Of a DNA stretch of 64,000 nt, positions 1,200 through 33,452 are shown piece by piece. The translations under genes and the position numbers were made by a program. The notes under the pieces were generated by a model. The model was not told where the DNA came from, did no database searches, and saw only the letters and a program-made list of their open reading frames with translations. Each line of letters begins with the position of its first letter. The first letter of the stretch is position 1. Source of the stretch: Pecten maximus (taxonomy: Eukaryota); contig NC_047020.1 of the NCBI RefSeq assembly GCF_902652985.1, positions 3,596,001-3,660,000 of the forward strand, written 5' to 3'.

Positions 1200-1310
1200 A
1201 ACAACCGAGTTCATCTTCACCTCCAGAACAGTCCGGGTGACCATCACAGACAGTATCAATGGCAACACATTGATAGTCAGGGCACACAAATTCTGTACTG
1301 TCGCACCGGT
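1200..1310 (-). CDS. TTSP-like gene: LDLa module 6 exon
   Basis: Manual translation DRCDSTEFVCPDYQCVAIDTVCDGHPDCSGGEDELGC; CAG acceptor, T|GTGAGT donor. Confidence 0.92.
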
Positions 1311-1430: not shown

Positions 1431-1541
1431 CACAGTTCTCCTCATCTGTCCCATTGCGACAATCCAGAACTCCATCACAAACCCATTCTCGTCGTATACA
1501 GGCGCCGTCCTGACAAGCTGTCTCTATCAGAGCTTCACACT
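1431..1541 (-). CDS. TTSP-like gene: LDLa module 5 exon
   Basis: [37 protein letters not shown]; CAG acceptor, G|GTAAGT donor. Confidence 0.92.
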
Positions 1542-1696
1542 CTGTCAACAAAAAGAATCGTTTCATCAACAAAAAGTTATTTATATTTTCAAAATTTGAC
1601 AATAAACATTGATATTGTATATATATCAAATAATCCAAGATTTTTAAAGAAAAATATAAACAAAGCAGGTGGGATTAATTTCAAGCCTGAATTATA

Positions 1697-3401
1697 TCAT
1701 CACTGAAGGTAAGATAGATTCTCCTGAGTAACTCACCACACTGTGTCATCACTGAAGGTAAGATAGATTCTCCCCAGTAACTCACCACACTGTGTCTCAT
1801 CACTGAAGGTAAGATAGATTCTCCCCAGTAACTCACCACACTGTGTCTCATCACTGAAGGTAAGATAGATTCTCCTGAGTAACTCACCACACTGTGTCAT
1901 CACTGAAGGTAAGATAGATTCTCCCCAGTAACTCACCACACTGTGTCTCATCACTGAAGGTAAGATAGATTCTCCTGAGTAACTCACCACACTGTGTCAT
2001 CACTGAAGGTAAGATAGATTCTCCCCAGTAACTCACCACACTGTGTCTCATCACTGAAGGTAAGATAGATTCTCCTGAGTAACTCACCACACTGTGTCTC
2101 ATCACTGAAGGTAAGATAGATTCTCCCCAGTAACTCACCACACTGTGTCATCACTGAAGGTAAGATAGATTCTCCCCAGTAACTCACCACACTGTGTCTC
2201 ATCACTGAAGGTAAGATAGATTCTCCCGAGTAACTCACCACACTGTGTCATCACTGAAGGTAAGATAGATTCTCCAGAGTAACTCATCACACTGTGTCAT
2301 CATTGAAGGTAAGATAGATTCTCCCCAGTAACTCACCACACTGTGTCTCATCACTGAAGGTAAGATAGATTCTCCCCAGTAACTCACCATACTGTCTCAT
2401 CACTGAAGGTAAGATAGATTCTCCCCAGTAACTCACCACACTGTCTCATCACTGAAGGTAAGATAGATTCTCCCCAGTAACTCACCACACTGTCTCATCA
2501 CTGAAGGTAAGATAGATTCTCCCCAGTAACTCACCACACTGTCTCATCACTGAAGGTAAGATAGATTCTCCCCAGTAACTCACCACACTGTCTCATCACT
2601 GAAGGTAAGATAGATTCTCCCGAGTAACTCACCACACTGTGTCTCATCACTGAAGGTAAGATAGATTCTCCTGAGTAACTCACCACACTGTGTCTCATCA
2701 CTGAAGGTAAGATAGATTCTCCCCAGTAACTCACCACACTGTGTCATCACTGAAGGTAAGATAGATTCTCCCCAGTAACTCACCACACTGTCTCATCACT
2801 GAAGGTAAGATAGATTCTCCTGAGTAACTCACCACACTGTGTCTCATCATTGAAGGTAAGATAGATTCTCCCCAGTAACTCACCACACTGTGTCTCATCA
2901 CTGAAGGTAAGATAGATTCTCCCCAGTAACTCACCACACTGTGTCTCATCACTGAAGGTAAGATAGATTCTCCTGAGTAACTCACCACACTGTGTCATCA
3001 CTGAAGGTAATATAGATTCTCCCCAGTAACTCACCACACTGTCTCATCACTGAAGGTAAGATAGATTCTCCCCAGTAACTCACCACACTGTGTCATCACT
3101 GAAGGTAAGATAGATTCTCCCCATTAACTCACCACAGTGTATGTCATCACTGAAGGTAAGATAGATTCTCCCCAGTAACTCACCACACTGTCTCATCACT
3201 GAAGGTAAGATAGATTCTCCCCAGTAACTCACCACACTGTCTCATCACTGAAGGTAAGATAGATTCTCCCCAGTAACTCACCACACTGTGTCTCATCACT
3301 GAAGGTAAGATAGATTCTCCCCAGTAACTCACCACACTGTGTCATCACTGAAGGTAAGATAGATTCTCCTGAGTGACTCACCACACTGTGTCTCATCACT
3401 G
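1697..3401. repeat. Intronic minisatellite, 51/49-bp unit, ~34 copies, derived from the LDLa4 exon end plus its splice donor
   Basis: Unit catcactgaaggtaagatagattctccccagtaactcaccacactgtgtct; the array overlaps the last 20 nt of exon 3382-3489. Confidence 0.97.
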
Positions 3402-3489
3402 TTGTCGTAGCAGTCGTCCACACCATCACACCAAGCAGACGACTGGATGAAGATTCCATTACTGCATCGCTTGTATCCTGGTCTGAAGG
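3382..3489 (-). CDS. TTSP-like gene: LDLa module 4 exon (4-Cys variant)
   Basis: Manual translation PFRPGYKRCSNGIFIQSSAWCDGVDDCYDNSDETQC; CAG acceptor, G|GTGAGT donor, phase 1-1. Confidence 0.9.
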
Positions 3490-3777
3490 CTGATAATAAC
3501 AGAAAAACATCAGCTTTATCAAGAGAAACTAAAAAATGTAAAATCTTAATTGACAGTCAATTATTAACAATCTTAATTCACTCGTATAAAAATGAAATAG
3601 TTGACATTACCATATTAATTCTCAAATAAGCTCCCTCCCCTAGATTTAATGTTTCGTATCAAAGTTTGGGTAGGGCTAATATATGTAAACCACTTTTAGA
3701 TTACTATTTTAAAATTGATGATTCTGCAAAAATAAAGAAAGGGGTTATTTGTGGATAAATATGGTATGAATATTTAC

Positions 3778-3882
3778 GGCATCCCAGTTCATCACTAAGG
3801 TCCTCACAGTCGACCACCTGGTTACAGCGACTGGAGTGTGTCCACAGACATAGACCTGAATCACACTGGAACCCAGCACAAC
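3778..3882 (-). CDS. TTSP-like gene: LDLa module 3 exon
   Basis: [35 protein letters not shown]; AG/GT boundaries, phase 1-1. Confidence 0.92.
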
Positions 3883-4097
3883 CTGTAACAAACACATTAC
3901 TTTATAACAACAGTAATTAGGACTAATCATATCTGATATATGTGCTATGTCTGGAGAGGTTCGGGAGGCCGAGACGATATATTTTCTAACACTATGTTTG
4001 CTACGTTCTTGGACAAGACTTTTTGTTTCAATTTCTGTGGAGAGTATGCAGCATATTGTGTTTACAGATGTAGTCACTATCCTCTACAAGGATACCT

Positions 4098-5379: not shown

Positions 5380-7368
5380 CTATGGTGGTGGTGGGTTCAG
5401 TGATGGTTGTGATCTTGGCTGCGGTGCTGGGTGAGGTGGCTGTGGGTTCAGTAGTGGTTGTGATCTTGGCTGCGGTGCTGGTTGAGGTGGTTGAGGTGGT
5501 TGCGGGTTCAGTAGTGGTTGTGATCTTGGCTGAGGTGCTGGTTGAGGTGGTGGTGGGTTCAATGGTGGTTGTGATCTTGGCTGCGGTGCTGGGTGAAGTG
5601 GTTGTGGGTTCAATGATGGTTGTGATCTTGGCTGCGGTGCTGAGTGAGGTGGTTGTGGGTTCAGTAGTGGTTGTGATCTTGGCTGAGGTGGTGGTGGGTT
5701 CAATGGTGGTTGTGATCTTGGCCCTGGTGCTGGGTGAGGTGGTTGTGGGTTCAGTAGTGGTTGTGATCTTGGCTGAGGTGCTGGGTGAGGTGGTTGTGGG
5801 TTCAGTAGTGGTTGTAATCTTGGCTGAGGTGCTGGGTGAGGTGGTGGTGGGTTCAGTGGTGGTTGTGATCTTGGCTGAGGTGCTGGGTGAGGTGGTAGAT
5901 GTGGTGGCTGTTGGTGCAGTAGTGGTTTTGGTGCTGGCTGAGGTGCTGGTTGAGGTGCTGGCCACTGTGCTGTTTATGACAGTGGTTGTAGACCCTGATG
6001 TTTCACTAGTGTATAAAGGAGTTGTCTTCTCCAAAGGGAGGGTATGATATACAGATGACTGGGGTTGTATGGTACCCTGCCCCTCAGTTCTACCTACCAA
6101 GGCAGACGACACAGAGGTGGGGGTGGGAACAATGGCAGGAATTGGGTGGGTAGACACTAGTACAATGGGGGTGGTTGTTACCGAGGACTGCAAAGGTGTT
6201 TGTGGGTAGGAGACCAAGGACATGGACATTTGTGAGGTAGGTAAAGGAGTTGTAGGGACTGTCTCCTGTACCAAGGAGGAGGAAGACATCAAAGGCCGAC
6301 TGGAGTTCATTATAGAACTCGACATAGAGATGGAAACATCATGTAATAATGATTCTGAAACATCAGCCAAGGTGTCGTCTATTTTCTGAGACGGAGAAAG
6401 ACTACCTGATGAGGAGGACAAGACAAACTTGGCAGATGTTTGTGACATGTGTGTTGTAAATGAGGAAATAAAATGATCTGATATAGAAGAGGTGGCATCT
6501 TCTGAAGTATGTGGGGGACCTACAGAACTTTCTAATGATGTTGTTGATTGGGAAGACACATGATGTTGAGATACCGTTGACTCGGAGAAGGAGTGATTTG
6601 TTGACTCGGAGAAGGAGTGATTTGTTGACTCGGAGAAGGAGTGATTTGTTGACTCTTGAGTGGAGTAAACAAGTGACCTCACTTCTGACCTTAAAAATGA
6701 GGTCATATCACTGGCAATTATTGTGGTCTGATGGAGGCTTGATGGTAGAGGTTCCATAGATGTCATCTCCATGGAGGAAGTTGAAGACATATCTAGCTCG
6801 TCAACTGATGATGAGGAGGAGGATGAGACGTGGTGTGAGGACATCATTGGATCTGTTACCATGGTTACAAAAACAGATACTTCAGATGGAAACAAAGATG
6901 TTGAAGTTGGGTTAAATACAGATGACTGCAGGGCAGGTGTCAAGTGTTGGGTATCCTCTACAATCGGGGAAGGTTTGGTGTCTAAACTTAATGATATGGG
7001 ATTGGTGGCATAAGTCATACTAGTGGAATAGACAGATGATCCAAATGACGATCTTAATGATGATCCTAATGATGACCCTAATGATGATCCTAATGATGAT
7101 TCAGATGATGATTCAGATGATGATCCTAATGATGATTCTGTTGAGGAAGAAGTTGCAGATTGTTGTGGTATAATCAGTGAACTTCTGCTATGGTAAGTAT
7201 CTGTACTGACAGAGACAGAGGTTGTTGCACCCGATGACCCAAAACTACCCAGAAAACTAGCTGTACTCTGTGACCCTTGTGCACTAAATGACCCCAGCCT
7301 TGTCATGCCTACATAATGAGTTGTTGAGTTTTCCAGTAGGGCTGCAGCTTTCACTTGTTGTCTGGTGT
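5380..7368 (-). CDS. TTSP-like gene: ~660-aa Ser/Thr/Pro-rich mucin-like stalk exon
   Basis: Lies within ORF 5357-7411. CAG acceptor at 7371-7369 and G|GTAAGT donor at 5379; phase 1-1, joining in frame to both flanking exons. Confidence 0.85.
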
Positions 7369-7585
7369 CTGTAATACAGCAGAAAACTCTGTTAATAAAA
7401 CATTTCTTCAAATCGTAACAAAATTCAATGCCTCAATTATATTTTTTACATCTCCTATAAAGAGTTGCCTGCTTTTATTTCTTTATTTATTTTAAGTATT
7501 TTTTTTCAACAAACTACACGAAGCACACAGACATTATTTGTGAGATCCTTTTCCTCTATAATGAGATCCTGACTGAATAACGTAC

Positions 7586-7811
7586 CATTTTCTGCTGTGA
7601 GCAGGACAGCAGTTACCACTGCGACCATCACCACTGTTAGGACGAGGCACACTACGCCTAATACCAACACACGCCTTGTCACTGCACGGAACTTCTGACT
7701 TCGCGGATCATCAAAATCAAATTGTTCTATGGCCATGGTCACAGGTGAACTTCCTCTGTTCTGAGTGGTAATTCTGTAACTTCCTGGTTCAGGCCTCAAC
7801 CCATCGTGATT
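7586..7811 (-). CDS. TTSP-like gene: exon with cytoplasmic tail and type II signal-anchor TM helix
   Basis: TAG acceptor at 7814-7812, G|GTACG donor at 7585. Translates NHDGLRPEPG...RAVTRRVLVLGVVCLVLTVVMVAVVTAVLLTAEN (basic residues then ~23 hydrophobic residues). True start (upstream exon, or internal Met of MAIEQF) not resolved. Confidence 0.8.
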
Positions 7812-8000: not shown

Positions 8001-8899
8001 TAACTGTTGTAAACTAATACAGGTAAATAAACTGTAGTAAACTAATACAGGTAAATAAACTGTAGTAAACTAATACAGGTAAATAAAATGTAGTAACCTA
8101 ATACAGCTAAATAAACTGTAGTAAACTAATACAGCTAAATAAACGGTAGTAAACTAATACAGCTAAATAAACGGTAGTAAACTAATACAGCTAAATAAAC
8201 GGTAGTAAACTAATACAGGTAAATAATCTGTAGTAAACTAATACAGGTAAATAATCTGTAGTAAACTAATACAGGTAAATAAAATGTAGTAAACTAATAC
8301 AGGTAAATAAACTGTAGTAAACTAATACAGGTAAATAAACTGTAGTAAACTAATACAGGTAAATAAACTGTAGTAAACTAATACAGGTAAATAAACTGTA
8401 GTAAACTAACTGTAGTAAACTAATACAGGAAAATAAACTGTTGTAAACTAATACAGGTAAATAAACTGTAGTAAACTAATAAAGGTAAATAAACTGTAGT
8501 AAACTAATACAGGTAAATAAACTGTTGTAAAACTAATACAGGTAAATAAACTGTAGTAAACTAATACAGGTAAATAAACTGTCGTAAACTAATACAGGTA
8601 AATAAACTGTAGTAAACTAATACAGGTAAATAAACTGTAGTAAACTAATACAGGTTAATAAACTGTCGTAAACTAATACAGGTAAATAAACTGTAGTACC
8701 AGGTAAACTAATACAGGTAAATAAACTGTAGTAAAACTAATACAGGTAAATAAACTGTAGTAAACTAATACAGGTAAATAAACTGTAGTAAACTAATACA
8801 GGTAAATAAACTGTAGTAAACTAATACAGGTAAATAAACTGTAGTACCAGGTAAACTAATACAGGTTATCAAACTGTTGTAAAACTAATACAGGTAAAG
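8001..8899. repeat. Minisatellite, 28-bp unit, ~32 copies
   Basis: aaactgtagtaaactaatacaggtaaat. Confidence 0.95.
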
Positions 8900-12574: not shown

Positions 12575-14577
12575 GGCTCAGAGACAAAAGTTAACCACTG
12601 TGGTGGCCCCACGAGTTAAAGTTTACCACTCTAGTGACTCTGATGAGTCACAAGTTAACTACTGTAGTGGCGCCAAGTCACAAATTAACTATTGTAGTGA
12701 CTCTGAGTCACAAGTTAACTATTGTAGTGACTCTGAGTCACAAGTTAACTACTGTAGTGGCTCTGAGTCACAAGCTAACTATTGTAGTGACTCTGAGTCA
12801 CAAGTTAACCATTGTAGTGACTCTGAGCCACAAGTTAACTACTGTAGTGACTCTGAGGCACAAGTTAACTATTGTAGTGACTCTGAGTCACAAGTTAACT
12901 ACTGTAGTGGCTCTGAGTCACAAGCTAACTATTGTAGTGACTCTGAGTCACAAGTTAACCATTGTTGTGACTCTGAGTCACAAGTTAACTACTGAAGTGA
13001 CTCTGAGGCACAAGTTAACTATTGTAGTGACTCTGAGTCACAAGTTAACTATTGTAGTGACTGAGTCACAAGTTAACTATTGTAGTGACTGAGTCACAAG
13101 TTAACTATTGTAGTGGCTCGGAGTCACAAGTTAACTATTGTAGTGACTGAGTCACAAGTTAACTATTGTAGTGACTGAGTCACAAGTTAACTATTGTAGT
13201 GACTCGGAGTCACAAGTTAACTATTGTAGTGACTCTGAGTCACAAGTTAACTATTGAAGTGACTGAGTCACAAGTTAACTATTGTAGTGACTCTGAGTCA
13301 CAAGTTAACTATTGTAGTGACTGAGTCACAAGTTAACTATTGTAGTGACCCTGAGTCACAAGTTAACTATTGTAGTGACTCGGAGTCACAAGTTAACTAT
13401 TGTAGTGACTCTGAGTCACAAGTTAACTATTGTAGTGACTGAGTCACAAGTTAACTATTGTAGTGGCTCGGAGTCACAAGTTAACTATTGTAGTGACTCT
13501 GAGGCACAAGTTAACTATTGTAGTGACTCTGAGTCACAAATTAACTATTGTAGTGACTGAGTCACAAGTTAACTATTGTAGTGACTGAGTCACAAGTTAA
13601 CTATTGTAGTGACTGAGTCACAAGTTAACTATTGTAGTGGCTCGGAGTCACAAGTTAACTATTGTAGTGACTGAGTCACAAGTTAACTATTGTAGTGACT
13701 GAGTCACAAGTTAACTATTGTAGTGACTGAGTCACAAGTTAACTATTGTAGTGACTCTGAGGCACAAGTTAACTATTGTAGTGACTCTGAGTCACAAGTT
13801 AACTACTGTAGTGGCTCTGAGTCACAAGCTAACTATTGTAGTGACTCTGAGTCACAAGTTAACCATTGTTGTGACTCTGAGTCACAAGTTAACTACTGTA
13901 GTGACTCTGAGGCACAAGTTAACTATTGTAGTGACTCTGAGTCACAAGTTAACTATTGTAGTGACTGAGTCACAAGTTAACTATTGTAGTGACTGAGTCA
14001 CAAGTTAACTATTGTAGTGACTGAGTCACAAGTTAACTATTGTAGTGGCTCGGAGTCACAAGTTAACTATTGTAGTGACTGAGTCACAAGTTAACTATTG
14101 TAGTGACCCTGAGTCACAAGTTAACTATTGTAGTGACTCGGAGTCACAAGTTAACTATTGTAGTGACTCTGAGTCACAAGTTAACTATTGTAGTGGCTCG
14201 GAGTCACAAGTTAACTATTGTAGTGACTGAGTCACAAGTTAACTATTGTAGTGACTCTGAGTCACAAGTTAACTATTGTAGTGACTGAGTCACAAATTAA
14301 CTATTGTAGTGACCCTGAGTCACAAGTTAACTATTGTAGTGACTCGGAGTCACAAGTTAACTACTGTAGGGACTCTTGAGTCACAAGTTAACTATTGTAG
14401 TGACTGAGTCACAAGTTCACCATTGTAGTGACTGAGTCACAAGTTAACTACTGTAGTGACTCTGAGTCACAAGTTCACTACTGTAGTGACTCTGTGTCAC
14501 AAGTTAACTTTTGTAGTGACTCTTGAGTCACAAGTTCACCATTGTAGTGACTCGGAGTCACAAGTTCACCACTGTAA
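12575..14577. repeat. Minisatellite, 30/28-bp unit, ~65 copies
   Basis: gagtcacaagttaactattgtagtgact(ct); contains the dyad gtgact..agtcac and TGAGTCA. Confidence 0.95.
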
Positions 14578-15007
14578 TGTTATCAACTCCTGACAGGTTT
14601 GGTGTATGGAGAATCCATCACCTATACATTTACCAATCCCAAAACAAACACACAACACCCTACAGAAGGTTATAGTATACATCTACCAAACAATACATTG
14701 TTTTCTATATCTACTCGACCTCAAGGGCTCGCGATCTTACCAAGGGACTAACCTTTGAGTTAACGATTCTTACATGAAAACTGTGGCACCTGTATAGTAT
14801 ACATAGTTTATTGCACAAGTAAAAAAAAAGGCACAGTTCTAATGTGAGGTGGTTTGTGGTAGGTGTACCTCTGTAACAGTGTTACTTCTCATGGCAGGAA
14901 GTCATGGTAGATCATATCTATCGTAAGTAATTTGGCTATGTGACAGTTTTCATTTCAGAATTAATAATCCTTGGGGATCAGGAACATGCGTACATCATAA
15001 CATTTTT

Positions 15008-15311
15008 AACAAGAGATCCCCGAGGGATCTTGGCGCCCACCACTGAATGATCTATATCAGTCAAATAATTGACCTATCTTTGATCTTATTTTACCTTCTT
15101 TCACTCTTCTTTAAAAACATTTATTAACTTTATATCTTTATATGACACTATATAGCAGGAGCAACCAACAATTGTCAAATCTCATTATTACTTTCTGAGA
15201 AATATAACGGTAAAAAGAATTGTTTACGGAGGTACTGAGGGATGGAGGGACAACGACCATGGACGCACAGCGATTTGAATAGTGCACCATCTGATGATGG
15301 TGGGCTTAAAA
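15008..15311 (+). mobile_element. Helentron-associated non-autonomous element (HINE/pearl-like)
   Basis: 5' aacaagag with hairpin agatccc-cga-gggatct; subterminal IR gcccacca (15035) / tggtgggc (15298); 3' stem-loop caccatc-tgat-gatggtg then aaaa; degenerate acgg/gacg microsatellite before the 3' end. Confidence 0.65.
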
Positions 15312-15860
15312 TACCAGTAAAAACATAATAAAAAATCTAAAAACAAATCTGAATAAAAGCATTGTATACCTGGTAATTGTTATACAATTACTGTGTACCT
15401 GGTAATTATAATACAATCATTAATTGTGTACCTGGTAATTGTTATATAATCAATGTACCTGGTACATTCCATTATTACACATTATTCCATTAGATTTAGA
15501 TCCGTACAGGTACTGTATACAAAGTAAAATAGCGACAAAAGTAGACACAATACTGTTAGACTGAAGGTCTCTTTAGACAGGTTATATGTACACTGTACCA
15601 TTAATGTTAGACTGAAGGTCTTGTTAGACAGGTTATATGTACCATTAATTGCCACAAACTACCTGGAGGCTGTGTTGTGTATCCATGTTTCCTTTTGGTT
15701 TTTAAACCTTCTTCTGGCTATTACGTCTACCGGTTGATTTTTTTTATTAAATTTAACTTGAAAACTTTTGCTGATAAAGTACATAACATTAAAAATTTCA
15801 TTCTTTTCCTGATCAACATTTAATGTTGAACATTAATTTTGCATCCAAAATTCAAGTATT

Positions 15861-16056
15861 CTGGACCATCTGGATCAACGTCCTGGACCATCTGGATCAA
15901 CATCCTGGACCATCTGGATCAACGTCCTGGACTATCTGGATCAACATCCTGGACCATCTGGATCAACGTCCTGGACCATCTGGATCAACATCCTGGACCA
16001 TCTGGATCAACATCCTGGACCATCTGGATCAACGTCCTGGACCATCTGGATCAACA
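15861..16056. repeat. Minisatellite, 22-bp unit, ~9 copies (probably in the C4orf33 3' UTR)
   Basis: ctggaccatctggatcaac(g/a)tc; lies between the stop codon (16244) and a minus-strand AATAAA at ~15748-15743. Confidence 0.9.
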
Positions 16057-16243
16057 CCATTCCACCAGTTTTCCAGACATCTCCATCTTAAACACTCCTT
16101 CACCAACAAAGTTCATCACATTATAAACACGTGATTAAACTGTCTGAGTCTTTACATCCTTGGATCTCATCATTTCTCCTCATCACCTTCTTTTGTGACC
16201 TTGACCTCCACTAGACCTTGACCTCTACCAGACCCTGACCTCA

Positions 16244-27170: not shown

Positions 27171-30100
27171 ACCACCCTCCTGGTAAGACATTTAGACGCT
27201 GTCACCATCCTGGTAAGACATGTAGATACTGTCACCCTCCTGGTAAGACATGTAGACATTGTTACCCTCCTTGTAAGACATGTACACACTGTCACCCTCC
27301 TGGTAAGTCATGTACACACTGCCACCCTCCTGGTAAGACATGTAGACACCACCACCCTCCTGGTAAGACATGTAGACACTGTGACCCTCCTGGTAAGACA
27401 TGTACACACTGCCACCCTCCTGGTAAGACATGTTGACACTGTCACCCTCCTGGTAAGACATGTAGACACTGCCACCCTCCTGGTAAGACATGTAGACACT
27501 GCCTTCCTCCTGGTAAGACATGTAGACGCTGTGACCCTCCTGGTAAGACATGTAGACGCTGTCACCCTCCTGGTAAGACATTTAGACGCTGTCACCATCC
27601 TGGTAAGACATGTAGATACTGTCACCCTCCTGGTAAGACATGTAGACATTGTTACCCTCCTTGTAAGACATGTACACACTGTCACCCTCCTGGTAAGTCA
27701 TGTACACACTGCCACCCTCCTGGTAAGACATGTAGACACCGCGACCCTCCTGGTAAGACATGTAGACACTGTGACCCTCCTGGTAAGACATGTACACACT
27801 GCCACCCTCCTGGTAAGACATGTAGACGCTGTCACCCTCCTGGTAAGACATGTAGACACTGTCACCCTCCTGGTAAGACATGTAGATACTGTCACCCTCC
27901 TGGTAAGACATGTACACACTGTCACCCTCCTGGTAAGACATGTAGACACTGTCACCCTCCTGGTAAGACATGTACACACTGCCACCCTCCTGGTAAGACA
28001 TGTACACACTGCCACCCTCCTGGTAAGACATGTACACACTGCCACCCTTCTGGTAAGACATGTTGACACTGCCACCCTCCTGGTAAGACATGTACACACT
28101 GTCACCCTCCTGGTAAGACATGTAGACACTGTCACCCTCCTTGTAAGACATGTAGACACTGTCACCCTCCTAGTAAGACATGTTGACACTGCCACCCTCC
28201 TGGTAAGACATGTTGACACTGTCATTCTCCTGGTAAGACATGTAGACACTGTCACCCTCCTGGTAAGACATGTTGACACTATCACCTCCTGGTAAGACAT
28301 GTAGACACTGTCACCTTCCTGGTAAGACATGTACACACTGCCACCCTCCTGGTAAGACATGTAGACGCTGTCACCCTCCTGGTAAGACATGTAGACACTG
28401 TCACCATCCTGGTAAGACATGTACACACTGCCACCCTCCTGTTAAGACATGTAGACACTGTCACCCTCCTGGTAAGACATGTAGACACGATCACCCTCCT
28501 GGTAAGACATGTTGACACTGCCACCCTCCTGGTAAGACATGTACACACTGCCACCCTCCTGGTAAGACATGTACACACTGCCACCCTCCTGGTAAGACAT
28601 GTACACACTGCCACCCTTCTGGTAAGACATGTTGACACTGCCACCCTCCTGGTAAGACATGTAGATACTGTCACCCTCCTGGTAAGACATGTAGACGCTG
28701 TCACCCTCCTGGTAAGACATGTAGACGCTGTCACCCTCCTGGTAAGACATTTAGACGCTGTCACCATCCTGGTAAGACATGTAGATACTGTCACCCTCCT
28801 GGTAAGACATGTAGACATTGTTACCCTCCTTGTAAGACATGTACACACTGTCACCCTCCTGGTAAGTCATGTACACACTGCCACCCTCCTGGTAAGACAT
28901 GTAGACACCACCACCCTCCTGGTAAGACATGTAGACACAGTGACCCTCCTGGTAAGACATGTACACACTGCCACCCTCCTGGTAAGACATGTTGACACTG
29001 TCACCCTCCTGGTAAGACATGTAGACACTGCCACCCTCCTGGTAAGACATGTAGACACTGCCTTCCTCCTGGTAAGACATGTAGACGCTGTGACCCTCCT
29101 GGTAAGACATGTAGACGCTGTCACCCTCCTGGTAAGACATTTAGACGCTGTCACCATCCTGGTAAGACATGTAGATACTGTCACCCTCCTGGTAAGACAT
29201 GTAGACATTGTTACCCTCCTTGTAAGACATGTACACACTGTCACCCTCCTGGTAAGTCATGTACACACTGCCACCCTCCTGGTAAGACATGTAGACATCG
29301 CCACCCTCCTGGTAAGACATGTAGACACTGTGACCCTCCTGGTAAGACATGTACACACTGCCACCCTCCTGGTAAGACATGTAGACGCTGTCACCCTCCT
29401 GGTAAGACATGTAGACACTGTCACCCTCCTGGTAAGACATGTAGATACTGTCACCCTCCTGGTAAGACATGTACACACTGTCACCCTCCTGGTAAGACAT
29501 GTAGACACTGTCACCCTCCTGGTAAGACATGTACACACTGCCACCCTCCTGGTAAGACATGTAGACACTGTCACCCTCCTGGTAAGACATGTACACACTG
29601 CCACCCTCCTGTTAAGACATGTAGACACTGTCACCCTCCTGGTAAGACATGTAGACACGATCACCCTCCTGGTAAGACATGTTGACACTGCCACCCTCCT
29701 GGTAAGACATGTACACACTGCCACCCTCCTGGTAAGACATGTACACACTGCCACCCTCCTGGTAAGACATGTACACACTGCCACCCTTCTGGTAAGACAT
29801 GTTGACACTGCCACCCTCCTGGTAAGACATGTAGATACTGTCACCCTCCTGGTAAGACATGTAGACGCTGTCACCCTCCTGGTAAGACATGTAGACGCTG
29901 TCACCCTCCTGGTAAGACATTTAGACGCTGTCACCATCCTGGTAAGACATGTAGATACTGTCACCCTCCTGGTAAGACCTGTAGACATTGTTACCCTCCT
30001 TGTAAGACATGTACACACTGTCACCCTCCTGGTAAGTCATGTACACACTGCCACCCTCCTGGTAAGACATGTAGACACCGCCACCCTCCTGGTAAGACAT

Positions 30101-33100
30101 GTAGACACTGTGACCCTCCTGGTAAGACATGTACACACTGCCACCCTCCTGGTAAGACATGTTGACACTGTCACCCTCCTGGTAAGACATGTAGACACTG
30201 CCACCCTCCTGGTAAGACATGTAGACGCTGCGACCCTCCTGGTAAGACATGTAGACGCTGTCACCCTCCTGGTAAGACATTTAGACGCTGTCACCATCCT
30301 GGTAAGACATGTAGATACTGTCACCCTCCTGGTAAGACATGTAGACATTGTTACCCTCCTTGTAAGACATGTACACACTGTCACCCTCCTGGTAAGTCAT
30401 GTACACACTGCCACCCTCCTGGTAAGACATGTAGACATCGCCACCCTCCTGGTAAGACATGTAGACACTGTGACCCTCCTGGTAAGACATGTACACACTG
30501 CCACCCTCCTGGTAAGACATGTAGACGCTGTCACCCTCCTGGTAAGACATGTAGACACTGTCACCCTCCTGGTAAGACATGTAGATACTGTCACCCTCCT
30601 GGTAAGACATGTACACACTGTCACCCTCCTGGTAAGACATGTACACGCTGTCACCCTCCTGGTAAGACATGTACACACTGCCACCCTCCTGGTAAGACAT
30701 GTACACACTGCCACCCTCCTGGTAAGACATGTACACACTGCCACCCTTCTGGTAAGACATGTTGACACTGCCACCCTCCTGGTAAGACATGTACACACTG
30801 TCACCCTCCTGGTAAGACATGTACACACTGTCACCCTCCTTGTAAGACATGTAGACACTGTCACCCTCCTAGTAAGACATGTTGACACTGCCACCCTCCT
30901 GGTAAGACATGTTGACACTGTCATTCTCCTGGTAAGACATGTAGACACTGTCACCCTCCTGGTAAGACATGTTGACACTATCACCTCCTGGTAAGACATA
31001 TAGACACTGTCACCTTCCTGGTAAGACATGTACACACTGCCACCCTCCTGGTAAGACATGTAGACGCTGTCACCCTCCTGGTAAGACATGTAGACACTGT
31101 CACCCTCCTGGTAAGACATGTACACACTGCCACCCTCCTGTTAAGACATGTAGACACTCTCACCCTCCTGGTAAGACATGTAGACACGATCACCCTCCTG
31201 GTAAGACATGTTGACACTGCCACCCTCCTGGTAAGACATGTACACACTGCCACCCTCCTGGTAAGACATGTACACACTGCCACCCTCCTGGTAAGACATG
31301 TACACACTGCCACCCTCCTGGTAAGACATGTACACACTGCCACCCTTCTGGTAAGACATGTTGACACTGCCACCCTCCTGGTAAGACATGTAGATACTGT
31401 CACCCTCCTGGTAAGACATGTAGACGCTGTCACCCTCCTGGTAAGACATGTAGACACTGTCACCCTCCTTGTAAGACATGTAGACACTGTCACCCTCCTA
31501 GTAAGACATGTTGACACTGCCACCCTCCTGGTAAGACATGTTGACACTGTCATTCTCCTGGTAAGACATGTAGACACTGTCACCCTCCAGGTAAGACATG
31601 TAGACACTGTCACCCTCATGGTAAGACATGTTGACACTGTCATTCTCCTGGTAAGACATGTAGACACTGTGACCCTCCTGGTAAGTCATGTAGACACTGT
31701 GACCCTCCTGGTAAGACATGTAGACATGATCACTCTCCTAGTAAGACATGTTGACACAGTACCCTCCTGGTAAGACATGTACACACTACCACCCTCCTGG
31801 TAAGACATGTACACACTGTCACCCTCCTGGTAAGACATGTGCACACTGCCACCCTCCTGGTAAGACATGTAGATACTGTCACCCTCCTGGTAAGACATGT
31901 ACACACTGTCACCCTCCTGGTAAGACATGTAGATACTGCCACCCTCCTGGTAAGACATGTAGACACTGCCACACTCATGGTAAGACATGTAGACACTGCC
32001 ACACTCATGGTAAGTCATGTGCACACTGTCACCCTCCTGGTAAGACATGTAGATACTGCCACCCTCCTGGTAAGACATGTAGACACTGCCACACTCCTGG
32101 TAAGACATTGAGACGCTGTCACCATCCTGGTAAGACATGTAGATACTGTCACCCTCCTGGTAAGACATGTAGACATTGTTACCCTCCTTGTAAGACATGT
32201 ACACACTGTCACCCTCCTGGTAAGTCATGTACACACTGCCACCCTCCTGGTAAGACATGTAGACACCGCCACCCTCCTGGTAAGACATGTAGACACTGCC
32301 ACCCTCCTGGTAAGACATGTAGACACTGTCACCCTCCTGGTAAGACATGTAGACACTATCACCCTTCTGGTAAGACATGTACACACTGCCACCCTCCTGG
32401 TAAGACATGTACACACTGCCACACTCATGGTCAGACATGTAGACACTGTCACCCTCCTGGTAAGACATGTACACACTGCCACCCTCCTGGTAAGACATGT
32501 ACACACTGCCACCCTCCTGGTAAGACATGTACACACTGCCACCCTTCTGGTAACACATTTAGACACTGTCACCCTCCTGGTAAGACATGTACACACTACC
32601 ACCCTCCTGGTAAGACATGTACACACTGCCACCCTCCTGGTAAGACATGTACACAATGCCACCCTTCTGGTAAGACATGTTGACACTGCCACCCTCCTGG
32701 TAAGACATGTAGATACTGTCACCCTCCTGGTAAGGCATGTAGATGCTGTCACCCTCCTGGTAAGACATTTAGACACTGCCACCATCCTGGTAAGACATGT
32801 AGATACTGTAACCCTCCTGGTAAGACATGTAGACATTGTTACCCTCCTTGTAAGACATGTACACACTGTCACCCTCCTGGTAAGTCATGTACACACTGCC
32901 ACCCTCCTGGTAAGACATGTAGACACTGCCACCCTCCTGGTAAGACATGTAGACACTGCCACCCTCCTGGTAAGACATGTAGACACCGCCACCCTCCTGG
33001 TAAGACATGTACACACTGCCACCCTCCTGGTAAGACATGTTGACACTGTCACCCTCCTGGTAAGACATGTAGACACTGCCACCCTCCTGGTAAGACATGT

Positions 33101-33452
33101 TGACACTGTCATTCTCCTGGTAAAACATGTAGACACTGTCACCCTCCTGGTAAGACATGTTGATACTGTCACCCTCCTGGTAAGACATGTAGACACTGCC
33201 ACACTCATGGTAAGACATGTAGACACTGCCACACTCATGGTAAGTCATGTGCACACTGTCACCCTCCTGGTAAGACATGTAGATACTGTCACCCTCCTGG
33301 TAAGACATGTAGACACTGTCACCCTCCTGGTAAGACATGTAGACACTGTCACCCTCCTTGTAAGACATGTTGACACTGTCACCCTCCTTGTAAGACATGT
33401 AGACACTGTCACCCTCCTGGTAAGACATGTAGACACTGTCACCCTCCTGGTA
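27170..33452. repeat. Satellite array, 30-bp unit, ~210 copies, with higher-order blocks
   Basis: tggtaagacatgtagacactgtcaccctcc; variant blocks recur at offsets of 1559 and 2699 bp. Confidence 0.98.

Follow-up and report, generated by a model that had tools for sequence, protein, structure and literature searches.

A minisatellite reiterating an exon end and its splice donor in an intron of a scallop serine protease gene

One intron of a membrane serine protease gene in the scallop Pecten maximus consists largely of a minisatellite that repeats the end of the preceding exon together with its splice donor. The window analyzed here is a stretch of 64,000 nucleotides (C6:3596001-3660000), in which TRF reports an array at 1697-3401 with a period of 49, 34.2 copies and 94% matches (unit 49/51 bp). 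The array makes up 91.6% of the 1840-nt intron (3381-1542) that follows the exon for LDLa module 4. Our main reading, to which we assign a probability of about 0.85, is that of an intronic minisatellite whose first unit lies across the exon end and donor, that was likely born when slippage or unequal exchange acted on a 9-bp direct repeat present by chance, and that is likely neutral, being tolerated because the main mRNA exits at the first donor. An earlier sequence-only reading had described an exon end and donor amplified some 34 times and an intron that is more than 90% array. Both descriptions hold up, with the correction that the intact decoys number 32 and not 33-34.

The host gene, a type II membrane serine protease, is encoded on the minus strand, and most of it falls in the first 8 kb of the window: an exon for the transmembrane segment (near 7.6-7.8 kb), the stalk rich in Ser and Thr, phase-1 exons for six LDLa modules, and one exon that is SRCR-like (Table 1). 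The protease exons lie 1.7-3.7 kb before the window start and are intact, with Pfam Trypsin matches and the His/Asp/Ser motifs in place. A broken host gene was rejected because the six LDLa exons, like the protease exons that carry these motifs, are all open. The exon for module 4, whose last 20 nt begin the array, shows 86% identity to its orthologues by tblastn; those for modules 5 and 6 fall below the tblastn identity filter and were identified from translation, orthologue comparison and Pfam. Module 4 is without its first and third cysteines, as it is in three orthologues, one disulfide pair having been lost together.

The nearest proteins (P0001-P0003) come from three scallop genera and are 77-82% identical in the protease exon. 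They share with the host gene the transmembrane segment, the Ser/Thr stalk, six LDLa modules, the SRCR-like module and the trypsin domain, and one of them is labelled 'Atrial natriuretic peptide-converting enzyme' in its source record. Vertebrate corin has frizzled domains besides LDLa, SRCR and trypsin. The Pfam lists of P0001-P0003 contain LDLa, SRCR_2 and trypsin but no frizzled domain, which speaks against placing the host gene among the corins; 'corin-like' is a label and does not imply orthology to corin.

Table 1. Features of the host gene and of the array (positions in the window unless a chromosome is given)
Feature	Position	Strand	Basis
Minisatellite, 34.2 copies	1697..3401	-	TRF; unit = 15-17 nt exon end (20 with CAG) + GTGAGT donor + 28 nt intron
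GTGAGT, the authentic donor and first of 34 positions	3376..3381	-	X6/X10 contigs exit the genome at 3382; donor score 8.2 (predicted donors: median 8.1)
Sole dead donor copy ATGAGT, after an AA-type unit	2282..2287	-	Unit split
9-bp direct repeat CAGTGATGA, 5' copy, in exon (SDE codons)	3393..3401	-	Sequence
9-bp direct repeat CAGTGATGA, 3' copy, array end; putative ancestral intron copy	1697..1705	-	Sequence
First pseudo-exon piece, 15 nt, AG...GT, would encode VMTQC	3333..3347	-	Unit split; X6 depth 0 on 3333-3358
Read-through TGA within second donor	3329..3331	-	Translation
Unique 3' intron part with authentic acceptor (AG at 1543-1542)	1542..1696	-	Acceptor score 10.4, 88th percentile
Stop-codon array of host gene	C6:3591971-3592372	-	Repeat analysis, tblastn
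Stalk exon (Ser/Thr-rich) and upstream transmembrane exon	5380..7811, ends approximate	-	ORFs, tblastn
LDLa module 1 exon	5225-5109	-	Translation, tblastn, genome domain matches
LDLa module 2 exon	4539-4429	-	Translation, tblastn, genome domain matches
LDLa module 3 exon	3778..3882	-	Pfam; 3489/3778 joint in RNA runs X6 and X10
LDLa module 4 exon, phase 1-1, 108 nt	3382..3489	-	Pfam PF00057 33.4 bits, above cut-off; spliced contigs end to end
LDLa module 5 exon, 111 nt	1431..1541	-	Pfam PF00057 42.4 bits
LDLa module 6 exon	1200..1310	-	Translation matches orthologues

Read on the gene strand, the array presents 34 donor positions, namely the authentic one, at 3381, followed by 33 copies, 32 of them intact. 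Every unit has a 34-nt intron-like part that starts with GTGAGT and ends with CTTCAG, and the exon-like pieces between these parts measure 15 nt in 19 of 33 cases and 17 nt in 14. All but two of the pieces are flanked by AG and GT (18 of the 15-nt and 13 of the 17-nt class, 31/33). The earlier description of the unit as holding the last 17 nt of the exon is exact for 13 of the 33 pieces; it does not fit the 19 shorter ones, and the stretch common to exon and units is 20 nt when the CAG is included. Scored as an acceptor, the CAG of the repeat, described earlier as an acceptor mimic, ranks at the 69th percentile of those predicted (9.1 bits), much as a real acceptor does. Translation past the authentic donor yields GESLRRIYLTFSDDTVW and then the predicted TGA at the second donor. 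In the phase-1 frame the 15-nt pieces would encode VMTQC or VMRQC, as had been proposed, except that one gives VMRQY and so lacks the unpaired Cys expected of each; the 13 flanked 17-nt pieces would, as anticipated, shift the frame. The 9-bp microhomology reported for 3401-3393 and 1705-1697 is likewise present, CAGTGATGA standing at both places.

The array is real and local, and neither chance nor an assembly artefact, because all 31 exact matches of a 27-nt unit core in the Pecten maximus genome lie within it (control 0) and because DNA runs X4 and X5 each contain a contig that loops back 49 bases at the array. A DNA search likewise matched this locus only, and a dispersed satellite or transposon-derived unit was rejected on the local confinement of the core matches. 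That the assembly might be in error, about either the array itself or its copy number, was considered in view of the widely varying unit depth among DNA runs; moreover, no contig spans the array, so that the figure of 34 rests on the assembly. The stable unit variants, which fall into ordered blocks, together with the loop-back contigs, make such an error exceedingly improbable. Summed unit depth in X5 is 13,653-16,149 against about 30 on the single-copy flanks, a several hundred-fold excess, and in X4 it is 337-387 against 55-80, about fivefold. This contrast weakly hints at length polymorphism of the array, contig depth being no measure of copy number.

Splicing was followed in RNA and DNA contigs from four runs (RNA-type X6 and X10, DNA X4 and X5) of the 24 listed, placed on positions 3333-4090. 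Contigs from X6 (734 nt) and X10 (625 nt), which belong to two studies, are spliced RNA, because in both of them LDLa exons 3 and 4 are joined with a 288-nt GT-AG intron removed. Both cover the exon from 3489 to 3382, exit the genome at 3382 and continue for a further 252 (X6) and 187 (X10) letters, the junction being seen from the donor side only. The main mRNA, which is the form that contigs display, thus leaves exon 4 at the first donor. In X6 the depth is 0 on 3333-3358, in the first intron unit; rare forms are lost from contigs, however, and a piece of 15 nt may escape display. X10 includes an unspliced contig of the array unit at a depth of 11.2, summed over up to 33 copies, against 31.5 for the exon, and its source may be pre-mRNA, intron retention or DNA. 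At positions 3590-3775, within the 288-nt intron, lies an interspersed element of high copy number that has inverted-repeat-like joints and may be a MITE; its depth is in the thousands in all four runs.

Comparison with other scallops bears on the acceptor side of the same junction. The three orthologues read DETQC-V-C, DETDC-A-C and DETQC-A-C where LDLa4 meets LDLa5, with one residue between the modules, and a direct junction from 3382 to 1541 gives one residue as well. An insert resembling VMTQC is absent between the two modules in all three. It is these orthologues, and not the reads, that appear to exclude a 15-nt insert in the main form. The unchanged protein junction also led us to reject intron gain by tandem duplication (the Rogers model), the intron lying, as its neighbours do, in phase 1 at a module boundary.

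The same comparison weighs on the proposal that the array serves as a source of functional micro-exons, in which 15-nt cassettes would add VMTQC or VMRQC, and so a free cysteine, where LDLa4 meets LDLa5. Eighteen of the 33 pieces do have 15 nt, an AG and a GT, and would keep the frame, and the repeat CAG scores like a real acceptor. Nevertheless, besides the missing insert in the orthologues, a frameshift would follow from 13 pieces that are flanked in the same way, and the pieces are interchangeable and recently homogenised. The usual distance between branch point and AG is 18-40 nt; the sole branch-like motif in the unit, CTTAC, has its A only 8 nt from the AG. The splice signals, furthermore, show no sign of purifying selection (p=0.90, see below), the AG having been lost in 2 of 34 units. 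We consider functional micro-exons very unlikely.

What a decoy donor would do to the product was followed in silico by joining each of the first donors to exon 5. Donor 1 leaves the frame open, donors 2, 3 and 4 lead to a stop at residue 52-53, and all later donors would include the TGA of the second donor. Misuse of a decoy would therefore give a null product, with a stop far upstream of the last junction and before the protease exons. This raises the possibility of a rheostat, in which more units divert more transcripts to decoy donors and hence to a stop and NMD, so that allele length sets the level of protease. The stop that follows every later donor would suit such a device, as would the very different allele lengths at which the unit depths of X5 and X4 weakly hint, and human IFI6 and CBS are described as using nearby pseudo-sites. 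Against it, the main contigs use donor 1, the donor shows no special conservation, and the layout is common in the genome; in human F7, according to the published account, leakage is confined to the closest site and does not follow the number of copies (PMC1557585). A rheostat is accordingly unlikely in our judgement. A small leak from the decoy donors may occur, rare isoforms being invisible in contig data.

Neutral birth and tolerance of the array, our main reading, can be laid out as a series of steps. The unit of exon end, donor and 28 nt of intron is bounded by CAGTGATGA, and the ancestor would have been a 195-nt intron with a single unit, a first duplication seeding the expansion; introns neighbouring it in the host gene range from 120 to about 900 nt. 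A second CAGTGATGA presumably happened to lie in this ancestral intron, about 50 nt beyond the exonic copy, for which the local composition gives a chance of about 3% per exon end. Slips of 2 nt in GAGACACA would then have produced the 49-bp unit types. The first donor is used in the main form, and the downstream donors would lose, by analogy with F7 and by exon definition, as the splicing machinery would encounter the upstream site before them and spacers of 34 nt would be too short for splicing. If exon 5 were joined to any later donor, the frame would run into a stop upstream of the protease exons, and the leaked product would probably be removed by NMD. Selection would thus act only as a filter, retaining those arrays in which the first copy leaves the coding sequence intact; the stop-codon array of the same gene, described below, may be compared.

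The proposed origin by slippage or unequal exchange at the 9-bp repeat is supported, and it fits the Haber-Louis model, which, as outlined in PMC3389668, places the birth of minisatellites between direct repeats of 5-10 bp. The scallop array has such a 9-bp repeat at both ends, with one copy being coding, and a single-unit ancestor is the form that we infer. The terminal 9-mer could alternatively be a by-product of a non-integer array. Exact terminal repeats of at least 4 letters were found in 33 of 179 other arrays, a count without meaning given the roughness of TRF edges.

Neither upkeep nor removal of the decoys by selection is visible. Ten arrays with enough copies, this one included, were scored, and no special conservation of the donor appeared: 17 variants fall in the 60 columns of the hexamer, against 108 in the 359 remaining columns of the unit (p=0.90). 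For this array alone the figures are 1 variant in 6 columns for the hexamer and 8 in 43 elsewhere. Selection for or against decoy donors thus gave no signal, as the hexamer varies like the rest of the unit. The same result argues against a U1 sink or telescripting pad, in which 33 strong donors would bind U1 and be kept to protect or pace transcription. The consensus GTGAGT in 32 of the 33 copies is what such a pad would need. However, the intron without the array would be only 195 nt, which leaves little for a U1 pad to protect, and arrays without donors fill other introns of the host gene. A U1 pad seems scarcely credible on this evidence. The functional part of the sequence-only reading (rheostat, U1 sink, micro-exons) thus finds no support, with the first donor in the main contigs, no insert in the orthologues, no conservation of the donor and about 5% of sampled donors in a like arrangement.

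This last figure comes from a survey of the Pecten maximus genome outside this locus. The sample was built on matches to LDLa, Sushi and TSP1 and comprised 80 stretches of 10 kb and three small loci, or 809 kb in all; it was chosen by domain exons and not by repeats, and it is clustered in a few dozen multi-domain genes. Exon ends were predicted from our own profiles and splice-site matrices, without RNA, and an array was taken as three or more copies. Arrays span 14 of 242 predicted donors (5.8%, 95% interval 3.5-9.5%), or 11 of 239 after related copies are merged, and in them a consensus donor is repeated as many as 85 and 104 times. At control positions 60-390 nt away in the introns the share is 1.7% (p=9e-5; p=0.003 with merged copies). 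A first pass with LDLa matches only had given 13 of 143 rows, three of them repeat copies and one an acceptor-side copy, and then 8 of 137; two of these failed the stricter final count. On the acceptor side, arrays span 7 of 267 predicted sites (2.6%). A depletion at acceptors is not established in this sample, the comparison with donors giving p=0.08 and that with the neighbouring 100 nt of intron p=0.24.

The excess over the control appears to reflect where arrays lie in general. Array starts have a density of 1.04 per kb in the last 60 nt of exons and 0.90 per kb in the first 100 nt of introns (p=0.72), and the deeper intron, at 0.37 per kb, is lower than both near-boundary zones (p=0.003). 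The equal density on the two sides of the donor implies that arrays cluster near exons generally and that spanning a donor brings no visible penalty or bonus. Array edges, similarly, show a density about 2.3-2.4 times that of deep intron where an exon boundary lies no more than 100 nt away, on both the donor and the acceptor side (p=0.003 each). Protection from large deletions and the make-up of short introns are candidate causes of this clustering.

Several arrays in the survey are larger than the one described here. Donor-spanning arrays behind LDLa or TSP1 exons lie on C8 near 41,380,900 (43 bp x 85), where the degraded copies are those nearest the real donor, and on C3 near 2,166,200 (36 bp x 104). 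Others are found on C10 near 442,500 (63 bp x 42), C11 near 31,373,900 (21 bp x 42) and C19 near 27,477,500 (21 bp x 36). Acceptor-spanning arrays on C19 near 16,501,400 (39 bp x 56) and C13 near 26,327,300 (37 bp x 45) place 45-50 identical acceptors upstream of the real one, and they are a sharper test of splice-site choice because the real site comes last. At C3:25,365,001-25,375,000 the same 95-bp donor-spanning array occurs on three duplicated Sushi exons, so that it predates the exon duplication or spread with it.

The surroundings are also rich in repeats. In the window 22 arrays of tandem repeats take up 41% of the sequence, and over the 124 kb that surround the host gene the share is 48%; tandem repeats are reported as the top repeat class in two scallops, at 11.3% and 21.7% (PMC5700196; PMC10225492). 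The host gene has a second array anchored in coding sequence, in which the last 20 codons, the stop and 3 nt form a 64-bp unit repeated 6.3 times into the 3' UTR. This array is the counterpart of the donor array in the same gene, and no splicing role is possible for it. Elsewhere in the window, the arrays at 8002-8898 and 27173-33452 carry the donor-like sequences CAGGTAAAT and CTGGTAAGA on the plus strand, the former antisense to the protease gene, and no flanking exon was identified for either. The segment at 25.2-27.1 kb, beside a 6.3-kb array of 30-bp units, is strongly skewed and rich in homopolymers and resembles low-quality read sequence. A neighbour gene on the minus strand at 16.3-23.5 kb has two similar tandem modules with DAPFF, VEAFF and FPRGVTKFNAFAIHG motifs, and it may resemble the C4orf33 family.

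The layout of the scallop array has been known in print since at least 2006, and this locus is one more case of it. In intron 7 of human F7, as described by Borensztajn et al. (2006; PMC1557585), a 37-bp VNTR has its first unit across the boundary and identical pseudo-sites behind it, and only the most upstream donor was used in 50 constructs. The scallop array is a donor-spanning minisatellite of this F7 IVS7 type, and of the type called a mirage in amphioxus: its units are local and run head to tail, the first lies on the boundary, the donor is reiterated, and the upstream donor is the one used in the main mRNA. The boundary-spanning first unit, the reiterated intronic donor and splicing at the most upstream site are thus common to both, as is a serine protease gene as host. 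By that account F7 has 5-9 copies and 4 exonic nt, whereas the scallop array has 34 copies with 15-20 exonic nt, every unit also bearing a CAG that resembles an acceptor, and in the scallop gene, unlike F7 as described there, a leak would always meet a stop. The suggestion that the array is a natural test of how the first donor is chosen is therefore supported as an idea, although such a test has already been done on F7 (PMC1557585).

Other human arrays cited in that paper are similar to the scallop array in layout and copy number: IFI6 (6-16; 25 pseudo-sites), CBS IVS13 (15-20 repeats), LMNB2 (10-15 x 100 bp) and PDGF intron 4 (16-18 x 81 bp). IFI6 and CBS are reported there to use one or two proximal pseudo-sites as well (PMC1557585), whereas for the scallop array the contigs display the main form. 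The invertebrate form is represented by the amphioxus mirages of Adh3 and the globin genes BflGb6 and BflGb9, boundary-spanning minisatellites, many with AG/GT, that are unstable in length and reportedly leave normal splicing undisturbed (PMC3087553). Like the scallop arrays, these occur in an invertebrate and include both donor and acceptor types, but they belong to a different phylum and their frequency is anecdotal in the account given (PMC3087553), whereas for the scallop there is an estimate of about 5% of sampled donors. Variable internal tandem repeats at exon-intron boundaries are described as creating introns (PMC2812944). These are likewise boundary minisatellites with cryptic splice sites; the scallop array differs from that description in having no new intron, its site being the usual phase-1 one between LDLa modules.

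The step beyond what is in print is a rough rate, about 1 donor in 20 in the Pecten maximus genome; no earlier count of donor-spanning arrays in a bivalve was found in the open-licence literature. A far-reaching extension would be that donor-spanning VNTRs sit on about 1 exon in 20 of the scallop, by extrapolation on the order of ten thousand loci, and that, where all decoys give stops, allele length tunes NMD loss, making up a genome-wide and fast-mutating splicing-QTL layer, with acceptor arrays depleted since the decoy comes first there. We give this extension a small chance. In such genomes, exon ends may be placed wrongly by gene predictors and by read mappers. If the rate holds genome-wide, scallop RNA would also offer material on the asymmetry between donors and acceptors (p=0.08, not established), and it would supply natural replicates, in the thousands, for studying how splicing picks the first among many identical donors.
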